From Candidatus Eiseniibacteriota bacterium (GTDB lineage Bacteria > Eisenbacteria > RBG-16-71-46 > CAZAMP01): a DNA stretch of 64,000 nt. Below the pieces are notes generated by a model. The model did not search any database. It saw nothing but the letters and a program-made list of their open reading frames with translations, and was not told the origin of the DNA. The stretch spans positions 1,152,001 to 1,216,000 of the forward strand of contig OZ245046.1 in assembly GCA_965224245.1 (NCBI GenBank), given 5' to 3'. Positions 8,966-64,000 of this stretch are shown in pieces; position 1 is the first letter of the stretch; each line of letters begins with the position of its first letter. A program made the position numbers and the translations under genes.

Positions 8966-9355
8966 TCACGCGTAGTCGATGCTCCCGGATGCGTCGCCCA
9001 GCTTCCCCATGAGGGCGTCCTCGGTGTCCGCGCAGTCGATCACGCCCAGGAGCCCGACCACCTGGAGCACCGCCATCGCGCGGTGCTGGACGGCGGCCAG
9101 ACAGAGCCGTCCCCCGGCGTTGGTCACCGTCGTGTAGCACGCCGCCAGCACGCCGACGCCGCCGCTGTTGATGTGATCGATGTTCTCCAGGTTGAAGATG
9201 ACGCCCTTGATGGGCTTCAGTGCGCTGATCTCCTCGCGGAAGTCCTTCAGAAACCGATACGCGTCGCGGGAGTCGGTCAGATTTCCGCTCAGCCGGTAGA
9301 TCGGAACGCCGCTCTGCTCGTTCCGCTCGACGGTGAGATGTGTCCAGGACGTCAT
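8966..9355 (-). CDS. STAS domain protein (anti-sigma factor antagonist)
   Basis: RLSGNL...VIFNLENIDHINSGGVGVL...GGRLCL...VLQVVGL pattern; GGAG upstream; TACAAT at 9426-9431. Confidence 0.85.
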   Translation of the reverse strand: MTSWTHLTVERNEQSGVPIYRLSGNLTDSRDAYRFLKDFREEISALKPIKGVIFNLENIDHINSGGVGVLAACYTTVTNAGGRLCLAAVQHRAMAVLQVVGLLGVIDCADTEDALMGKLGDASGSIDYA

Positions 9356-9516: not shown

Positions 9517-10095
9517 TCACCCCTCCGCGCCGTCGCCGGCGAGCTCGGCCCGCAGCCACATCGCCGCCACCCGCCAGTCGTCGGCGACCGTCTTGCGCGA
9601 GACGCCGAGCTCGGCGCCGATCTCGGCCCCCGTGAGTCCGCCGAACACGCGGAGCTCCACGACGCGCGCCATCCGCGCGTGGCGCGCCGCGAGCTTGGAG
9701 AGCGCGTCCTCCAGCTCCACGGTGTCCAGGTCGCGGCCGGGCGATGCCAGCGCGTCTTCCTCGATCAGCACGCGCTGGCGGGACCCGCCGCGCTTCTCGG
9801 CGCCGTGCTTGCGGGCGTGATCGATCAGGACCTGACGCATCGCGCGGGCGGCGATCGCGAAGAAGTGGGCGCGATCGTTCCACTGAATCTCCGTCGGATC
9901 GATCAGCCGCAGGTAGGCCTCGTTCAGCAGCGCGGTGGGCTGGAGCGTGTGGTCCTCGCGTTCGCCGCGGATCCGGTTGGCCGCGATTGCGCGGAGCGCG
10001 TCGTAGCTGGCCGCGAACACGCGATCGGCATCGTCCCGCGAGAGGTGCTCGCCGTTCGAGGACGCGAGTATCCGCGTGATGTCGGCGTCGGCCAT
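9517..10095 (-). CDS. ECF sigma factor, ECF43/TIGR02999 type
   Basis: ITRIL, HTLQPTALLNEAYLRL, WNDRAHFFAIAARAMRQVLIDHAR, KRGG, VELRVFGGL and DWRVAAMWL; GGAGG before ATG 10095. Confidence 0.92.
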   Translation of the reverse strand: MADADITRILASSNGEHLSRDDADRVFAASYDALRAIAANRIRGEREDHTLQPTALLNEAYLRLIDPTEIQWNDRAHFFAIAARAMRQVLIDHARKHGAEKRGGSRQRVLIEEDALASPGRDLDTVELEDALSKLAARHARMARVVELRVFGGLTGAEIGAELGVSRKTVADDWRVAAMWLRAELAGDGAEG

Positions 10096-10256
10096 CCGGG
10101 ACCTCCCCACGGCATCGCTCTCCGTACCAGGTTACACCTCGGACCGCGATTGCGCCTCTCCAGATGAGGACCGAGGCGCCCGGTGTGTCTTCCGAGCTCA
10201 TCTCCTACCCGGCAGCTTCGCGTCGTACTGGAGGTCGATGTACGTAAAATATTGAA

Positions 10257-55549: not shown

Positions 55550-55590
55550 AATCAATTCAGACATTGATAAAATCAATAATACAATTGATT
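55550..55590. promoter_or_regulatory. Tandem palindromic operator, two copies of ATCAAT-N6-ATTGAT 21 bp apart
   Basis: Copies at 55551-55568 and 55572-55589 within a ~60-bp AT-rich island just upstream of the DUF2089 SD. Confidence 0.7.
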
Positions 55591-55614
55591 ATTATGTCAA
55601 CGGGGAGGTGTCGG

Positions 55615-55965
55615 ATGGACGTTTCACAATCCAGATGTTCGAGCTGCGGACGCCCGATGGAGGTGACTCGGTTCTCCTGCGACCGGTGTGACGTCACGGT
55701 CGAGGGCCGCTTCGACATCCCGGCGCTCGCCCGCCTGTCGCTCGACGACCAGGTCTTCGTGGTCGCGTTCGTGCGTCACCACGGGTCGATCAAGCAGATG
55801 GAGCGTGTCTTCGGCATCAGCTATCCCACCGTCAAGAACCGTCTCAACGCGATCATTGCCGAGTTGGACAAGAGCTTCGCGGCGCCATCACCCAATCTAC
55901 TCGTGCTCGAACGGCTCGAGCGGGGAGAGATCGGAGTCGACGACGCACTCGACCTGCTCGAATGA
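55615..55965 (+). CDS. DUF2089 family protein (Zn-ribbon plus HTH)
   Basis: CSSCG...CDRC..VEGRF and HGSIKQMERVFGISYPTVKNRL; GGGAGG SD. Confidence 0.9.
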   Translation: MDVSQSRCSSCGRPMEVTRFSCDRCDVTVEGRFDIPALARLSLDDQVFVVAFVRHHGSIKQMERVFGISYPTVKNRLNAIIAELDKSFAAPSPNLLVLERLERGEIGVDDALDLLE

Positions 55966-55978
55966 GAGGAGAGCCCAC

Positions 55979-56434
55979 ATGTCGTTGGAGCGAAAGAAGA
56001 TTCTCGATCTCCTGGCCAGCGGGAAGATCTCGCCAGAGGAGGCCGACCGCCTCTTGGGGCGCCTCGATGCGTCGAGTGGGCGGGGCCCCGGTCCGTCCTC
56101 GCATGCCGGCGACGGGGCCGCGACCTCGGCGCATGCGGTCTCGGTGGTCGCCTCGCCCCAGGGAACTCGGCGACGGCTTCGCTTCCTCCGCATCCTGGTC
56201 ACGGGCTCCCGCGGCGATGTCGTGAACGTCCGGGTGCCGCTGGATCTGGTCAGAGCCGGAGTCAAGCTCACCGCCGCGCTCCCTCAGGAAGCGAAGGACA
56301 AGCTGGCCGCGCGCGGAGTGGATCTGGACCACCTGTGCGGACTCGACGGCGAGAGCCTGATCGACGCCCTTCGCGAGCTCTCGATCGACGTGGACAGCGA
56401 CGACGGCGATACCGTGCGGATCTTCTGCGAGTGA
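55979..56434 (+). CDS. SHOCT-like N-terminal domain protein (usual DUF2089 partner)
   Basis: ERKKILDLLASGKISPEEADRLL, FLRILV...VNVRVPL.LV and IDVD..DGDTVRIFCE; AGGAG SD. Confidence 0.8.
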   Translation: MSLERKKILDLLASGKISPEEADRLLGRLDASSGRGPGPSSHAGDGAATSAHAVSVVASPQGTRRRLRFLRILVTGSRGDVVNVRVPLDLVRAGVKLTAALPQEAKDKLAARGVDLDHLCGLDGESLIDALRELSIDVDSDDGDTVRIFCE

Positions 56435-56608: not shown

Positions 56609-56875
56609 CTACCAGCGATCGCGCCGTTCGCCGCGCGGCCGGGCCTCGTTGATGTTGAGGTTGCGCCCGTCCATCTGATAGCCGGCGAGCGCCGCGATGG
56701 CAGCATCGGCCGCTGCATCCTCCATCTCGACGAATCCAAAGCCGCGCGGCCGTCCGGTCTCGCGATCCTCGATCAGCGCCACGGACAGGACCGTGCCGTG
56801 CTGCTCGAACAGCGCCCGGACCTCGTCTTCCGTCGCCGAAAAGGGCAGGTTTCCAACGTAGATTCTCTTGGCCAT
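56609..56875 (-). CDS. RRM (RNP-1) RNA-binding protein
   Basis: IYVGNLPF (RNP2), DRETGRPRGFGFVEM (RNP1) and GRNLNINEARPR; AGAAGGA SD. Confidence 0.95.
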   Translation of the reverse strand: MAKRIYVGNLPFSATEDEVRALFEQHGTVLSVALIEDRETGRPRGFGFVEMEDAAADAAIAALAGYQMDGRNLNINEARPRGERRDRW

Positions 56876-57096
56876 GGATTCGTTCCTTCTCGCCTCAACA
56901 CCGTCGAGGACACCAGAGACCACCCCGCTCTCGCGAACGGAGCATCGCAACCGCGTGTTACGGCGTTCGTGAGTCGGTGGAAGGGAGACTCGTCAGGAAA
57001 GCTCGCGAAGGCCTCTCGAAGTCCGCTGACGCCAACGAACGGCGCACGCCACGCCACACCAAAGAAACGCTAGCGCGGCAGCGGGCGCGCCGTCAA
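56876..57096 (-). promoter_or_regulatory. Promoter and ~185-nt structured 5' leader of the RRM gene
   Basis: TTGACG(57096-57091)-18 nt-TAGCGT(57072-57067); nested complementary segments at 56953-57049. Confidence 0.6.
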
Positions 57097-57221: not shown

Positions 57222-57695
57222 TCAGCGTCCGTCGTTCCGCGGCTCGTCGAGCGCGTCGGGCACGGACGCCTTCGGGGCCAGCTCCGTGCCCAGTCCGACC
57301 CCCGGAAACCCGACGTTCCGCAGGATGTCGAGCACCTGCACGATCTCACCGTGACGAACACCCGCCTCGGCCTCGAGCATCACGGGGCGATCGGGCGCGG
57401 CGGCGTGTGCGGCGCGCAGCCGGGACTCCAGCTCGGATGCGTCGATGGCCAGGCCGTCCAGCGCGTAGCCGCCGGCCTCGGTCACGACCAGCTCGAGCTG
57501 TCCGCCGGACCCGCCCGGATCCGCGGCGGTGGCGGTCTCCGAGGACGGCAGGCGAAGCTCGAGCTCGCCGAAACGCTTGAAGGTGCCGGTCAGCATGAAG
57601 AAGATGATCAGGAGGAACAGCACGTCGATCAGCGGGGTCACGCTCAGATGGACGGCCTCGCGTCCGCGCCTGGCCCTGAACTCCATCGCGCTCAT
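57222..57695 (-). CDS. exbD: ExbD/TolR family biopolymer transport protein
   Basis: VTPLIDVLFLLIIFFML; ATGA overlap with exbB. Confidence 0.88.
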   Translation of the reverse strand: MSAMEFRARRGREAVHLSVTPLIDVLFLLIIFFMLTGTFKRFGELELRLPSSETATAADPGGSGGQLELVVTEAGGYALDGLAIDASELESRLRAAHAAAPDRPVMLEAEAGVRHGEIVQVLDILRNVGFPGVGLGTELAPKASVPDALDEPRNDGR

Positions 57696-58324
57696 CGCGC
57701 GGGCCCCTTCGTGGACGACGCGGCATCGGGGCGCAGTCGCGCGACCAGACGACTCGCGTGCGCCTCGATCTCGGTGATGAGGCTCTCCGCACGCGCGGCC
57801 AGGAGGTTGTACGCGACGAGGGTGGGGATGCCGACGGCCAGCCCGACGGCCGTCGTGATCATCGCTTCGCTGATCCCTTCCGAGAGTGCCCCGGGATCCC
57901 CCAACCCCGAGATCGAGATCGACGCGAAGACCTTGATCATGCCCAGGACGGTGCCCAGGAGCCCCAGGAGCGGGGCGGCCTGGGCAATGGTCTGAAGCCA
58001 CACGAGATGCCGATCCAGCACCGTCGTCTCCTGCCGTCCCGCGTCGAGCACGGCGTCCCGGACGACGTCCCAGGGCTGATGGGCCTGCGTCAGGCCGACG
58101 CACATGATGTCCGAGAACGCACCCGGGTTTCGCCGGCACACGTCGATCGCGACGCTCAGGTCGCGACCGGGTCGGACCGCCTCCACGACCTCGATGATCT
58201 CCCGCCGAAGCACGCGACCGCGGCGGAGCGCCAGGAGCCGTTCGATCGTGATCGTCATGGCCAGAAGGCTGCACGCGGCGAGTGGGTAGATGATCGGACC
58301 GGCCTGTTCCAGGAACTCCAGCAT
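57692..58324 (-). CDS. exbB: MotA/TolQ/ExbB proton channel family protein
   Basis: APLLGLLGTVLGMI and GISEAMITTAVGLAVGIP; GAGGAG SD. Confidence 0.9.
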   Translation of the reverse strand: MLEFLEQAGPIIYPLAACSLLAMTITIERLLALRRGRVLRREIIEVVEAVRPGRDLSVAIDVCRRNPGAFSDIMCVGLTQAHQPWDVVRDAVLDAGRQETTVLDRHLVWLQTIAQAAPLLGLLGTVLGMIKVFASISISGLGDPGALSEGISEAMITTAVGLAVGIPTLVAYNLLAARAESLITEIEAHASRLVARLRPDAASSTKGPAR

Positions 58325-58368
58325 CGAAGATCGCTCCTCGTTGAGTGCGCCCGCGCGGTCGCGGTGGG

Positions 58369-59331
58369 TCAGCGGCGAAGATCCGGATAGATCAGCGTGA
58401 TGTCGAGGACCAGCGCGTCCTCGGGGAAATCGGCCGGCAACGGTGGAAACGGGCTGGCGGCCTCGAACGCGCGCACGCTCGCGTTACGAAGCTCGCGGTG
58501 CCCTTCCTCGTCGATCACGGCGAGCTCGAGCATCTGGCCGCTCGGCGCGATGCGGACCCGAACCCGCGTCCACCCGTGAATGAGCCCGTACAGGTGGCCC
58601 GAAGGTGACAGCCAGCGCGGCATGAAGTCGCGCCGGAACTGCCGCATCCACTCACCCCATGCCCAGCGCGTCGTGTTGAGACTGATGTCGCCGGCGAGAC
58701 GGACGCTCCCGGCCGGGTTCGACACCGAGGCCTGTCTGAGATCACCCGGTGCGATCGGATGCACGATCTCGTCCTCGAGCGAGCGAGCAGGTGCGGACGC
58801 GGTCGGCGTGGCGACCGGAGCGGCGCGAGAGCCGGGCTGATCGACCGCGACGGCGTCACGTGGCACCGGAGTGGAGGTCACGTCCGCCTCGGCGGTCTCG
58901 GTCTCCGGCTCGTCGTCCGGCTCCTCGAGGGGCGGGGTGACGGCGTCGGGAGAGCCGTCGGAGATCTCGACCTGGGCGATCTCGGCGAGTCCGTCAGACT
59001 CGGGCACGACGTCGTCGTCGGTGTGGTCGGAGTGGTCGCGGGCGCGACTGTCGACGTTGCTCAGGAAGTCGGCCCGTTCCGGCGGCTCGTCCGCGCGATC
59101 CTCGGGCAGCTCGGTGAACGTCGCGGGCTCGGCCGCCGGGAGCGGCTCCGGCGCGAACACGAGGCGGATCGGGTCGGGGGCGGCGTCGGCGAGCGGGGTC
59201 GGCGACAACGGATCGATCGCGACGATCGCGCCGATGACGAGCGCGTGGGCGAGCAACGTGGCCGCGAAGGCCGCGGCCCACATGCGTGTCCGCGTCTCCC
59301 GTCTCCCGATGCCGCCCAAGACCCCTCCCAT
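58369..59331 (-). CDS. TonB/TolA family energy transducer
   Basis: TM with conserved His (TLLAHAL), Pro/Asp/Glu-rich linker, C-terminal ASVRAFEAASPFPPLP; start 59331 or 59283. Confidence 0.8.
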   Translation of the reverse strand: MGGVLGGIGRRETRTRMWAAAFAATLLAHALVIGAIVAIDPLSPTPLADAAPDPIRLVFAPEPLPAAEPATFTELPEDRADEPPERADFLSNVDSRARDHSDHTDDDVVPESDGLAEIAQVEISDGSPDAVTPPLEEPDDEPETETAEADVTSTPVPRDAVAVDQPGSRAAPVATPTASAPARSLEDEIVHPIAPGDLRQASVSNPAGSVRLAGDISLNTTRWAWGEWMRQFRRDFMPRWLSPSGHLYGLIHGWTRVRVRIAPSGQMLELAVIDEEGHRELRNASVRAFEAASPFPPLPADFPEDALVLDITLIYPDLRR

Positions 59332-59843
59332 GTGTGACCCACGACCGGCGCCGCGTCTCCCTCGTCACACCGCGCATGTGGCACGAGTGTGGCAACGTCG
59401 AGACAGAGTGCGTTACGCCGGGGCCGACGTGCAACGTCGCGATGTCCGGCGGCGAGTGGGAAGCGCTCACGACGGGCGAGCGTCCCTCGCCAGATGGCCG
59501 TCCGCGGTGCGTGTCGTGAACCCCGGCCGTCGGTCCGAGGTTTCGCCGCTCCGCGCGGGGCTCGGGCCGGCCGCCGCCACCGGCCCCCAGGATGTCCGCA
59601 AGTGCCTCGACGTGAAGCATGGTAGTCTCGTTCGACTTCGTGACGACCGGCCGGGCACGCGACCCGCCACGGCGTCTGCCGAGAGCTCGGCTACGGTCAG
59701 GGCGAGGCGACCCGGATCCGACGGCCTCGTCCGGAGCCAGGAGGGCACCGAACGTGACGCATCCACGCGACCGCGAGAGACGCGCTCGTCGCGAGACGGG
59801 GCTCGCCTCCAGCATCCGTTCGATCCCGACCGGAGGTGACTGA

Positions 59844-60425
59844 GTGTCGAGCCGATCCGAGGTCACCAGGATCCTGACGTCGCTCGCCCGTGGGGAAGCC
59901 CCCGTCGGCGCCGACGAGAAGCTCATGGATCTCGTGTACGTCGAGCTGCGCCGCATGGCGGCGGGGTTCCTCCGGCGCGAGCGAGAGGGACACACGCTCC
60001 AGCCGACCGCGCTGGTGAACGAGGTGTACCTCAAGCTCGTGGACCCGGGCCAGTCGACGTGGGCCGACCGGGCGCACTTCATGCGGGTCGCCGCGCGGGC
60101 GATGCGTCAGATCTTGATCGACCACGCACGTCGCAAGCGGGCGGCTCGCCGCGGTGGCGACTGGCAGCGCGTCACGTTCGACGAGGCCGTGGGGCTCGCG
60201 GTGAACGACGCCGACGAGCTGATCGCGCTCAACGACGCCCTCGAGGCGTTCGCGGAGCTCGATCCACGCGCCGCGAAGGTCGTCGAGCTGCGAGTGTTCG
60301 GCGGCATGACGGTCAAGGAGGCGGCCGAGGTGCTCGAGGTGTCGCCTCGCACCGTGGACGGCGACTGGGCGATGGCGCTGGCCTGGCTGGGGCGCGAGCT
60401 GAGCGGCGACGACGCGACGTCCTGA
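59844..60425 (+). CDS. ECF sigma factor, ECF43/TIGR02999 type (second paralog)
   Basis: EVTRIL, HTLQPTALVNEVYLKL, RAHF..AARAMRQILIDHAR, VELRVFGGM and DWAMALAWL; GGAGG SD. Confidence 0.93.
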   Translation: MSSRSEVTRILTSLARGEAPVGADEKLMDLVYVELRRMAAGFLRREREGHTLQPTALVNEVYLKLVDPGQSTWADRAHFMRVAARAMRQILIDHARRKRAARRGGDWQRVTFDEAVGLAVNDADELIALNDALEAFAELDPRAAKVVELRVFGGMTVKEAAEVLEVSPRTVDGDWAMALAWLGRELSGDDATS

Positions 60426-60474
60426 CGTGCGTTCGCGGGCCGCCCGGGGCCGGATCGACATCGTCACCCGCCTC

Positions 60475-60687
60475 TCACCGCCGTCGGAGCGCACTCCGAA
60501 CGCTCTCGATCCAGTCGCGATCTCGAATGAGACGCGGTGGCGGCTGCTCGAGCAGCGCCTCGACGTCCCGCCGGAGGGCGGCGTCCCGGCCGCACTCGCG
60601 TTCGAGGAACGCCGCGCGTTCGGTCGGGGCGATCGCGAGAGCGTCGAGCAGAACTCGCTTGAGCCGCCGGTATCGCAGTACGTGCAT
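60475..60687 (-). CDS. 70-aa protein resembling the N-terminal pre-kinase segment of ECF43-associated Ser/Thr kinases
   Basis: RYRRLKRVLLDALAIAPTERAAFLERECGRDAALRRDVEALL; GAGAGGG SD before ATG 60687. Confidence 0.7.
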   Translation of the reverse strand: MHVLRYRRLKRVLLDALAIAPTERAAFLERECGRDAALRRDVEALLEQPPPRLIRDRDWIESVRSALRRR

Positions 60688-60956
60688 CGGAGCCCTCTCG
60701 GGTCTCGTTGGACTCGTCGTGATGTCGAGCGAAGTCTGTACCCTGGAAAGCGTGTCCGGACGCCGAAACACGCAGTGCGCGCCCCAAAAGTGGGGAGCCA
60801 CGTCGTGACGTCACGCCGGGACCGCGGTACAGTGCGCCGACGGTGCGCGACCGGCGACCCGAGCTCGCCCGGGTCGCCCACGTCGGACCGACGGTGAGTA
60901 GCTCGAAGCCGCGTTCGCCCGGCTCGGAGTGCGTTCATTCAGACAGGAGACCCGCG

Positions 60957-63900
60957 ATGGGATCCCAGCGCAGTCGCTTGCGTCGCCCCGTGTGGAGCGG
61001 CGTGCTCGGAGTGTCCATCGCCGCCGCACTCCTTCCCGCATCGGCCGGGGACGAACCCCCGGCCGAGCGTGCCGACTGGGTCGCCGACGGCGAGCAGGAC
61101 GGCTCGCTCTTCGGGTGGGACGTCTCGATCGGCGGTGACGTGAACGGTGACGGCTACGCCGACGCGGCCGTGGGGGCTCCGCTCTTCGACAGCCAGGAGG
61201 TCGACGGCGTACCGGACGTCGGGGCCGTCTACGTGTACCACGGATCGTCCGCCGGCCTCGGCCTGAACCCCGCACGCCGCCTCGACGGCTACGCCTTCGA
61301 CCCGGAGGCGCTCGGCCGCGCCGTCGCCCTCGGCGACGTGAACGGCGACGGCTACGCGGACCTCGTCGCGGGCCGGCCGTACGCGTCGGTCAAGGGGTTC
61401 GAGGAGGGTGCGGTCTCGATCTATCGCGGGTCTCCCGAGGGGGTCGACGGCTTCCCGAGCACCGATCTGTACAGCTTCTCGACCGGGGCCTGGTTCGGAG
61501 AGTCGGTGGCCACGCTCGACGCCAACGGGGATCGAATCGCCGACGTGCTCGTCGGGTCGCCGCTCCATACGAGTCGCATCGAGGGCGCCGGCGCAGCCTA
61601 CCTGTACCTCGGGTCCACCGATGGCGTCTCCGCCAACGAGTTCTGGTCGTACTTCGGGGCCGAGACCGGCGCCCAGCTCGGGTTCGACGTGAACGGTGCG
61701 GGCGACGTCAACGGCGACGGCGTTGACGACATCCTCGTGGGTGCGTACCTCGCCGGCGTCGACGATCGCGGACTGGCGATGCTGTTCCTGGGGAGCCGGA
61801 GCGGGATCGCGACCGAGCCCGACTGGGTCTTCGCCGGGGGACAGCCCGGGGAGGAGCTCGGCGTGTCGGTCTCGTCGGCCGGTGACGTCGACGCCGACGG
61901 CTACGACGACGTCGTCATCGGTGCCTGGAACTTCGACGGACGCGTGGGGCAGGACTGCGGCCGTGTGCTGTGGTTTCGCGGAGGGCCCGACGGCCTGGAG
62001 CCGGCGGGGACCACGCTGGCCGAAGGGGAGACCGTCGGCGCGGCCTTCGGACGATGCGTGGCCGCGGTCGGTGACGTGAACGGAGACGGCTACGACGACG
62101 TCGCCGTCGGGGCGCCGACGCACACCGGGCCGCTCGGCGCCGCCGCCGGCCGCGTCTACGTGTTCCCCGGCGGTCCCGCGGGCCTGGCGGGCGCGCCGCT
62201 CTGGGTCCTGGACGCGACGGCGCCGACGTCGGTCCTTGGCGCCTCGGTGGCGGGACGTGGCGATGTGAACGGAGACGGCTACCCGGACGTGATCTCCGGC
62301 GCGATCCTGGCCAGCTCCCTGGGCGCACAGACCGGTCGGGCCGAGCTGGTTCACGGGGGGCTTCCCCTCGTCTCCGGCTTCGGCGTGGCTCTCGACATGG
62401 TGACCGAGAGCGCCGACGCGCCGCCGTTCTTCGTCACGATCACGTACACGCTGGCCAACCTCGGCAACGGTCCGCTGACGGCCCTCGATCTCGCGAACGA
62501 CCTGAGCGAGGTCTTCGGCGCCGGACGGTACGAGGTTCTCGGCCCGCCCCGGCTCCTGACCGACTCGCCGATCCTCGTGAACGGCGGCTTCGACGGCGGC
62601 GCGTCGACCTCGATCACGTCGCCGCCGGCGTCGGCGCTGTTCGCGGGCGAGCTGGCCCGGATCGCGGTCGACGTCGAGGTATTCGAGTCCGGACGGTTCA
62701 CCAACCAGGTCGTCGCGACGTGTCAGGACGGGGATGGCGTGCTCCTGAGCGACGCCTCCACTCGCGGCATTCTCCCCGACCCGGACGGGGACGGTGACGC
62801 CGACGAGGCGGAGCCCACGACGATCTCGCTGGGTGCCTCGACCACGTCGCGAACCGTGCCCGACATGCCGCTGGCCAGCTGGCACCTGTGGTCGGTGCCG
62901 CTCGAGGTCGCCGCCAGCGACCCGATGGACCCGCCACGCCTCGAGCCCACGCTCCGCCGCGTGTTCGATCGTCCGTCGGACATCCGCACGTGGCTCGCGT
63001 ACGCCCAGATGGACTCCCTGATCGAGGATCCGATCCTGGCCGCCGGACAGGCCTACTGGGTGAACTCGCGATACCCGGTGACGCCGAGCCGCGTCAGCGG
63101 CATCGAGCGCCCCGCCGCCGAGCTGGAGCTCGTCCCCGGCTGGAACGCGGTGGGATGCCCGTCGGGGGAGGCCGCGGCATTCTCGACGATGCGGCTCCGG
63201 CGCGTGCGCGTGCCGAGCGAGGCCCTGACGCTGGGCCAGGCCCGCGATCTCGGTCTCATCGACGGCTTCTTCCGCCACTACGAGGACGACTCGCCCGATC
63301 TCCTGAACAACGGGGTCTGGCGGTCCGAGTCGGTGAGCTCGGTCACCCCGGGTGCGGCGATCGAGCCCTGGGGCGGGCGTCTCCTCCGTGTCTTCGGTGA
63401 TCCCCTCGTACTGTCGTTCGGCCGGAGCGCCTCCGATACGCTCGATGCACGGCCCGCGGCGCCCGCGTGGTCCCTGACGATCACGGCGCGGTCCGGGGGG
63501 CACCGCTCGTCGGTCGTGCTCTCGGGGGTCGACGGCGCGAGTGCGCGCTGGGACGTCTTCGACGTGGCGGCGCCTCCGAGCTGGTCGGACGCGCTAGGGC
63601 TGAGCGTGGCTCCCACCGACTGGGGCGTTCATGCAGGCCCGTTCGAGCGGTCGGCGGTGGATCCGAGCCTGACCACGCCGGCCAAGTTCCCGCTCGCGCT
63701 GGAGTCGGCGGCCAGAGCGACGCTCTCGCTGGCCGTGGACGGAGTCGACGGCATCGATGCCGTCGATGCCGGGCTCCAGGTTCACCTCCTGCTCGAGAGC
63801 GGCGTCGGCATCGACCTCGGAAGACGACCGGTCGCGTTCGAGGCCGGCACGCACCGCGTCACGATCCGGGTTGCCCGCACGGCCTGGCCGGGGCCGACGG

Positions 63901-64000
63901 CGACGAGCATCCGCGGCGGCGTGACCGCGGTCGCGCCGACGGTGTCGTGGGGGCCGTTCCACGTGCGATACGAGCTGACGTGGCCCACAGACGCCGCGCA
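60957..64000 (+). CDS. Large secreted integrin-alpha-type FG-GAP repeat protein with a DUF11-like domain; truncated at the window end and absent from the ORF track
   Basis: AGGAG SD; MGSQRSRLRRPVWSGVLG signal peptide; FG..V...GDVNGDGY.D..VGAP repeats; ITYTLANLGN; LVPGWNAVG; no in-frame stop seen to 64000. Confidence 0.85.
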   Translation, partial: MGSQRSRLRRPVWSGVLGVSIAAALLPASAGDEPPAERADWVADGEQDGSLFGWDVSIGGDVNGDGYADAAVGAPLFDSQEVDGVPDVGAVYVYHGSSAGLGLNPARRLDGYAFDPEALGRAVALGDVNGDGYADLVAGRPYASVKGFEEGAVSIYRGSPEGVDGFPSTDLYSFSTGAWFGESVATLDANGDRIADVLVGSPLHTSRIEGAGAAYLYLGSTDGVSANEFWSYFGAETGAQLGFDVNGAGDVNGDGVDDILVGAYLAGVDDRGLAMLFLGSRSGIATEPDWVFAGGQPGEELGVSVSSAGDVDADGYDDVVIGAWNFDGRVGQDCGRVLWFRGGPDGLEPAGTTLAEGETVGAAFGRCVAAVGDVNGDGYDDVAVGAPTHTGPLGAAAGRVYVFPGGPAGLAGAPLWVLDATAPTSVLGASVAGRGDVNGDGYPDVISGAILASSLGAQTGRAELVHGGLPLVSGFGVALDMVTESADAPPFFVTITYTLANLGNGPLTALDLANDLSEVFGAGRYEVLGPPRLLTDSPILVNGGFDGGASTSITSPPASALFAGELARIAVDVEVFESGRFTNQVVATCQDGDGVLLSDASTRGILPDPDGDGDADEAEPTTISLGASTTSRTVPDMPLASWHLWSVPLEVAASDPMDPPRLEPTLRRVFDRPSDIRTWLAYAQMDSLIEDPILAAGQAYWVNSRYPVTPSRVSGIERPAAELELVPGWNAVGCPSGEAAAFSTMRLRRVRVPSEALTLGQARDLGLIDGFFRHYEDDSPDLLNNGVWRSESVSSVTPGAAIEPWGGRLLRVFGDPLVLSFGRSASDTLDARPAAPAWSLTITARSGGHRSSVVLSGVDGASARWDVFDVAAPPSWSDALGLSVAPTDWGVHAGPFERSAVDPSLTTPAKFPLALESAARATLSLAVDGVDGIDAVDAGLQVHLLLESGVGIDLGRRPVAFEAGTHRVTIRVARTAWPGPTATSIRGGVTAVAPTVSWGPFHVRYELTWPTDAA

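Follow-up and report, generated by a model that had tools for sequence, protein, structure and literature searches.

The window, a 64,000-nt stretch of DNA (C1:1152001-1216000 of a 6.9-Mb assembly, 69% GC), contains a gene for an ECF43-type sigma factor that converges on a 70-aa open reading frame (ORF). This ORF, the mini-protein gene below, corresponds to the pre-kinase N-terminal segment, or head, of Ser/Thr kinases. The locus comprises the following features.

57692-59331, minus strand: TonB-C-terminal protein gene and ExbB/TolQ gene, divergent from the sigma gene, given as context (Pfam/NCBIfam profile matches)

59844-60425, plus strand: ECF43-type sigma factor gene (PF07638, TIGR02999), with coding-like codon use (GC3 0.92) and a strong Shine-Dalgarno sequence (duplex -13.8)

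60006-60008, plus strand: codon of Thr55 in the QPTA motif of region 2.2, the position of the activating phospho-threonine (T51 of EcfK, second Thr of STTA in EcfP, in the available text of PMC13147305 and PMC8999054)

60360-60395, plus strand: predicted head-binding site, sigma residues 173-184 in the C-terminal half of the region 4.2 recognition helix (plus L139, D140 and A143), from the complex model and covariation

60426-60474: 49-nt spacer between two convergent stop codons

60475-60687, minus strand: 70-aa stand-alone ORF (P0001), ATG to TGA, 49 nt from the sigma stop; a gene call in NCBI/ENA collections and a singleton cluster

60478-60546, minus strand: residues 48-70 of the ORF, a tail without homologues, with non-coding-like codon use and a modelled fourth helix (56-69, pLDDT about 76)

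60547-60687, minus strand: residues 1-47 of the ORF, the three-helix kinase-head module (helices 3-17, 21-32 and 36-46), undecayed according to profile match, AlphaFold2 and codon use

60693-60699, minus strand: weak Shine-Dalgarno-like GAGAGGG, not beyond chance

60957-64000, plus strand: gene for a large secreted FG-GAP repeat protein (PF01839 x7), divergent from the mini-protein gene and continuing beyond the window end

The sigma ORF is intact and encodes 193 aa. It matches PF07638 (E 3e-56) and TIGR02999 (217 bits for a cut-off of 126), and its designation as ECF43-type refers to these matches and to its motif rather than to an ECF43 group model. The protein lacks the DAED motif and carries a QTTA-like motif with Thr in third position (QPTA); a Thr occupies the T55 position in 171 of 178 aligned sigma factors. 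From this motif we infer that T55 would be phosphorylated directly. The absence of DAED is shared with EcfP, the ECF43 partner of PknT in Vibrio parahaemolyticus, which lacks this acidic motif and is inferred, in the available text of PMC8999054, PMC7826278 and PMC13147305, to need phosphorylation to bind RNA polymerase. At our locus the nearest of the 96 kinase ORFs of the genome ends about 105 kb away, and no kinase domain was detected in or near the 70-aa ORF. Because a Ser/Thr kinase gene adjoining the sigma gene is absent, the locus holds an orphan ECF43-type sigma factor and not a canonical pair.

No sigma70 promoter, terminator or Rfam family was detected at the locus; in particular, there is no intrinsic terminator in the 49-nt spacer and no sigma70-type -10 element upstream of the mini-protein gene on its strand. 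TAnnnT hexamers lie 5′ of the sigma gene (59623-59628, plus strand) and of the FG-GAP gene (60828-60833, plus strand). They failed the full promoter scan, and none was found on the strand of the mini-protein gene. A 13-nt repeat 5′ of the same two genes was discarded as a chance occurrence, with 62 matches genome-wide at one mismatch, unlinked to these loci. The FG-GAP gene is a possible target gene, as a candidate only, and the TonB neighbour has no match in the single genome of the same family. A DUF2089 HTH/zinc-ribbon gene with a SHOCT-like partner, and a bacterial RRM protein, lie at window positions 55564-56434 (plus strand) and 56609-56950 (minus strand).

The earlier note on this DNA had described a 70-aa ORF with a Shine-Dalgarno sequence and a clean stop, on the opposite strand 49 nt beyond the sigma stop. 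The ORF and the quoted peptide were confirmed. The Shine-Dalgarno motif is present, but it is weak: its duplex energy of -6.3 is equalled by 28.5% of 2000 random ATGs, the median of kinase starts in this genome being -5.9. The kinase origin proposed for the ORF was borne out by a pre-kinase segment profile built from the 45 other copies in this genome, with the mini-protein left out. The mini-protein scored 50.8 bits (E 6.9e-13) among 101,096 six-frame ORFs. A family profile (alignment A1, 35 rows including the mini-protein) matched residues 9-56 of the kinase PknS (E 4.9e-9). AlphaFold2 predicted the three helices listed above followed by the tail helix, with a mean pLDDT of 86. The mini-protein has no Pfam or NCBIfam match; fold searches gave no Foldseek hit at E≤0.001, and the best VIA Z score, 5.8, is below the level meaningful for helical bundles.

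Codon use of residues 1-47 is that of kinase-borne heads (GC3 0.85, compared with 0.83±0.07 in 44 such copies). The head reaches the 56th percentile of a leave-one-out score among 177 other copies, and is therefore considered undecayed; among the kinase-borne copies of the genome it stands at the 75th percentile. The stop codon falls 23 codons past the segment, and the kinase domain, transmembrane helix and sensor of a PknS-type protein are all absent behind the head. The 70-aa gene is thus confirmed as a copy of the three-helix head found on ECF43-linked Ser/Thr kinases, without the kinase itself. Its tail has a codon score of -0.40, identical to the non-coding mean (-0.40±0.32) and reached by 2% of 1385 gene ends. 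No coding-like frame was found in tail plus spacer, and the remaining 121 nt show no kinase 3′ trace in whichever frame they are read. The tail was also considered as a kinase C-terminus (mean score against 117 kinase ends 18.9 versus 18.0 for shuffles, p 0.02; best match p 0.39) and as a decayed alpha-C helix (maximum-score p 0.95, PSSM p 0.12, not significant), and both were rejected. Taken together, the kinase-borne type of codon use, the undecayed head and the non-coding-like tail make the gene look like the start of a kinase gene cut at a domain boundary, with the break at the domain end and start codon and frame intact.

No orthologue of the mini-protein was found in 206 genomes of the phylum or among 413 length-matched candidates, nor among the matches listed (21 loci) in a metagenome scan or the best 150 of 325 matches in 1.84 billion representatives; the order of the source organism is represented by only 2 genomes, which limits this search. 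Since no orthologue was found, selection on this copy is not measurable.

The head is common in this genome, which encodes 44 ECF43-type sigma factors. The profile without the mini-protein matched 45 ORFs at E<1e-9, namely 43 long kinases and two short ORFs (the mini-protein and a 73-aa ORF at C1:1063441). Two further matches were weak, one to another kinase and one to a 31-aa remnant, and about 50 of the 96 kinases have no head. Of 31 genomes, 20 have sigma and head together; in the other 11 neither was found, and the kin among the 31 genomes are not independent. Such segments had been expected to sit co-directionally after the sigma gene, and this is the rule: among 180 sigma/head pairs the head is downstream and co-directional in 157, divergent in 12, upstream in 6 and convergent in 5. 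The convergent arrangement is thus uncommon but normal. Three of the five convergent cases are intact kinases of this genome, whose stop codons lie about 12, 21 and 1015 nt from those of the sigma genes; two of the three belong to the same sigma clade.

Free heads are rare overall. Among the matches listed from the 31 genomes (150 of 157), four frames are shorter than 200 aa: the two of this genome, one real free head (G006) and one contig end. Of the 82 matches in 78 loci of named genomes, 78 are on kinases, two are frameshifted, one is truncated and one lies at a contig end. In the search of 206 genomes of the phylum, 12 short-frame loci yielded no clean free head; neither did the 10 short-frame loci fetched from a search around locus L062, in which 68 of 251 genomes of another family had matches (G344 is counted in this tally, its locus being left out). 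These 22 loci are broken kinases, contig ends or a chimera. Of the best 120 of 267 short proteins, mostly fragments, 55 continue into a kinase and 40 stop soon after the head, a group in which contig ends and real stops are indistinguishable without context. At L062, a free head of 65 aa with three cluster members of the same length lies upstream of a sigma and a kinase gene, and differs from the head of that kinase with a dN of 0.36 and saturated dS. Three further free-head proteins of 58 aa are 84-86% identical, two of them on contigs of 788 and 61 kb. Judged by these sequences, free heads that appear to be under selection exist elsewhere. A profile search for other stand-alone copies, as the earlier note had in mind, did recover some (C1:1063441, G006, L062), but most of the short frames were broken kinases or contig ends.

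Other arrangements point to a modular head that is also used without a kinase. In G006 (L242:5859-8965; also L042), a divergent headless kinase, a PF07638 sigma factor and a 68-aa free head stand in a row, as a naturally split system. In G013 (L235:6511-8226, minus strand) the head is fused to an AAA_16 ATPase directly behind the sigma gene, and the divergent kinase is headless. In G029 (L043:46-825, plus strand) it is fused to a proline-rich protein without Pfam match. Kinases with 2, 3 or 10 tandem heads occur as well (C1:90500-93691; P0144, P0148 with up to 10, and P0193). Among viral contigs, 85 pattern matches were obtained with P0102 as query, none of which was confirmed.

Structure prediction of the complex, foreseen in the earlier note, was carried out for the mini-protein and the neighbouring sigma factor. 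Three runs gave ipSAE values of 0.68, 0.68 and 0.65, whereas the best of three controls gave 0.07. Of 157 solved pairs, 116 attain the mark used for this score, as do 2 of 215 mismatched ones; the mark is a rough guide here as our own alignments were used. The runs share at least 48% of their contacts, with a partner pLDDT of at least 74, and no solved ECF43 complex was found that the model could have memorised. In the model, helix 1 and the end of helix 3 of the mini-protein (Y6, K10, L13, L14, L17, D41, A44 and L45) pack on sigma residues 139-140 and 173-187, the contacts being made by L139, D140 and A143 and, within the recognition helix, by G173, A176, M177, A180, W181 and R184.

Covariation was analysed in 180 neighbouring sigma/head pairs from the fetched loci and this genome, reduced to 178 (Neff 156) after two doubtful pairings were dropped. 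The top five of 10,340 inter-protein column pairs (sigma-head) were 184-41 (z 8.3), 184-44, 143-10, 177-6 and 180-13, all of them on or beside the modelled interface. The 18 modelled contacts had a mean z of 2.14, compared with 0.80±0.15 (maximum 1.06) in 40 swaps of partners between near relatives; for three of these 18 contacts z was negative. The complex model and covariation support, and the co-occurrence also fits, a head that probably binds sigma region 4, which supports the suggestion that the segment is a sigma-docking module.

By profile match to 2H27, and on the assumption that its 122-191 construct carries a 3-residue tag, S172, F175 and R176 of E. coli sigmaE are the counterparts of G173, A176 and M177 in our sigma factor. 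These sigmaE residues contact the -35 element, and R176 is called conserved in group IV sigma factors, in the available text of PMC1540707. The R176-equivalent position is hydrophobic in most of the 178 sigma factors. This suggests that in ECF43 sigma factors this face of the recognition helix may serve to receive the kinase head, which, once bound, would interfere with canonical reading of the -35 element.

A compatibility score was computed on 16 covarying or modelled residue pairs, which were taken from the same model and alignment, so that the score is partly circular. Cognate pairs of the genome had a mean of 0.5, compared with -4.6 for non-cognate pairs, with a median cognate rank of 4-4.5 out of 34. 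For the mini-protein, the neighbouring sigma factor ranks first of 34; with training on 144 foreign pairs only, the mini-protein and its neighbour rank 3 of 44 and 3 of 46. A membrane kinase that bears a head and has no sigma gene of its own (C1:3082613-3085267, minus strand), 1.9 Mb away, ranks 2 of 46 with its head for this sigma factor. In quick FastTree trees its kinase domain groups with the kinases beside the closest relatives of the sigma factor (supports 0.86/0.91). It fits another orphan sigma factor, C1:1766453, slightly better, and for this reason is regarded as a candidate partner in trans only.

Known ECF43 systems resemble this locus in part. EcfK, the partner of PknS in Xanthomonas citri, is the same type of sigma factor with a threonine in region 2.2, and it is PknS that the family profile matches. 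Unlike in EcfK/PknS, the segment here has a gene of its own, and the sigma gene has neither a kinase nor a membrane anchor or sensor beside it. In PknS the N-terminal segment of 83 aa, predicted to form 3-4 helices, is described as conserved, possibly functional and invisible in the crystal, and is given no function in the available text (PMC13147305, PDB 9EED). In contrast to our locus, the EcfP/PknT group is kinase-adjacent and typically lacks anti-sigma factors, and the available text describes no small third component; kinase-linked ECF groups in general typically lack anti-sigma genes in the available text of PMC7826278. Within the literature covered, our searches returned no function for the head segment and no description of free copies.

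NepR, Rsd and AsiA are anti-sigma factors that bind sigma4. Like such factors (RseA-type anti-sigma domain), the mini-protein is small and helical, and in the prediction it covers region 4 together with the -35 face. Unlike known anti-sigma factors it is kinase-derived, would compete for kinase docking besides sequestering the sigma factor, and has no family or clear fold match. The prediction suggests that it may work like a sigma4-binding anti-sigma factor or as a decoy of the docking site.

Our preferred reading, to which we give a probability of about one half, is that the 70-aa gene acts as a brake or decoy on the neighbouring sigma factor. On a kinase, the head would tether the cognate sigma factor and thereby ensure that, among some 44 paralogous kinases, the matching one phosphorylates T55. 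As a separate protein, the head would occupy the docking site in competition with a kinase in trans, for which C1:3082613-3085267 is the best candidate, and so block docking there; it would also mask the surface with which other ECF sigma factors read the -35 element. The gene would have arisen from a kinase gene severed at the domain boundary, its frame continuing to the first stop in non-coding DNA. The anti-sigma or decoy role suggested in the earlier note is plausible, but no orthologue of the copy was found in the collections searched, and its tail is non-coding-like. It is also a singleton with an unremarkable Shine-Dalgarno sequence; the complex test would give the same result for a close cousin or a recent relic of the true partner; most of the short frames found elsewhere are degenerate or incomplete; and the genome contains a clear 31-aa remnant and another truncated copy.

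These last observations bear on a serious possibility that we hold to be somewhat improbable, in which the sigma factor once faced its own convergent kinase, and one deletion from codon 48 through the stop left a functionless stub that still fits the sigma factor. The relic of a deleted and inverted kinase considered earlier is strong in its first part, but the inversion is unneeded: because intact convergent sigma/kinase pairs occur in the genome, two of the three in the same sigma clade, a deletion suffices. Relics of head-bearing kinases do exist, as seen from the broken kinases among the short frames and from L307/L308, a recent truncated kinase common to two genomes (dS 0). If the deletion was recent, the cognate fit and lack of decay would be expected, and the singleton ORF with its non-coding-like tail agrees with this. 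Truncated copies of the same clade are present at C1:1063441 (73 aa) and C1:1767016 (31 aa). However, of the roughly 950 codons of such a gene, only some 30 separate head from kinase, and the break falls among these (a chance of about 3%, a post hoc figure); the remaining 121 nt hold no kinase 3′ coding trace. In addition, the genome's three short derivatives all stop within 75 codons, and none of the 43 kinases is truncated further down. The short ends of the two co-directional derivatives are explained by erosion towards the sigma gene, which does not apply to the convergent mini-protein gene. Three features tip the balance slightly towards retention: the cut lies cleanly at the end of the domain, the interface residues are intact and no trace of a kinase is left.

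The 73-aa free head (C1:1063441-1063662; L049:4442-4663, plus strand) begins at the stop of a same-clade sigma gene and keeps the linker to 'LRTG'; the gene after it presumably encodes a CorA transporter. Scoring at the 21st percentile, it seems more relic-like than the mini-protein. The 31-aa broken head at C1:1767016-1767120 follows an orphan sigma gene, overlaps a repeat-protein fragment on the other strand, and is a clear relic. A second kinase-less ECF43-type sigma factor of the same clade is encoded at window positions 9517-10110 (minus strand), with no kinase or head in the surrounding 10 kb. Just downstream of it lies a gene for a 129-aa protein (8966-9355), a putative STAS anti-anti-sigma factor.

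A positive role of the free head, as an adaptor or chaperone that presents the sigma factor to a headless kinase or stabilises it in unphosphorylated form, is unlikely. It would be in keeping with the headless kinases of G006 and G013, whose heads are found free behind the sigma gene (L042/L242) or on the ATPase (L235), and with the headless half of the kinases of this genome. Nevertheless, there is no headless kinase near the locus, the mini-protein has no evident second binding surface and an unconserved tail, and a head-bearing kinase that fits the sigma factor exists in trans.

Short-read contigs from runs X1 and X2 cover window positions 58000-63000 with 0 differences, and X3 and X4 also span the locus; all four runs come from one sample, possibly the source of the assembly itself, and an assembly error is unlikely. 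That the gene is an artefact of misassembly or a chance antisense ORF is very improbable given its E value of 6.9e-13 to an independent profile, its coding-type codon use over residues 1-47 and the short-read identity over 5 kb, even if a 69% GC genome has many shadow ORFs and the confirming runs share one sample.

The docking of the head on the sigma factor is the robust part of our preferred brake or decoy reading, and the regulatory role of this copy stands at about even odds. The literature covered leaves unanswered how a Hanks kinase picks its own sigma factor among dozens of paralogues, and how phospho-activated sigma factors without anti-sigma factors are held off. It may be, slightly against the odds, that ECF43 kinases generally carry a built-in sigma4-capturing domain which gives specificity and masks the -35 helix until phosphorylation, and that free copies form a kinase-derived class of anti-sigma factors or decoys setting a threshold, shut-off or insulation in a cell with 44 such sigma factors. 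The head/sigma4 interface provides predictions at residue level (sigma 140, 143, 177, 180 and 184 with head 6, 10, 13, 14, 41 and 44), the natural free head would be a ready-made competitor, and the locus offers a case in which the arrangement is convergent, the adjacent kinase is missing and a candidate kinase exists in trans. Elsewhere in the genome, ten head-bearing kinases have no sigma gene within 6 kb, and at C1:2978589-2982230 (minus strand) sigma factor and kinase are encoded within one open frame.
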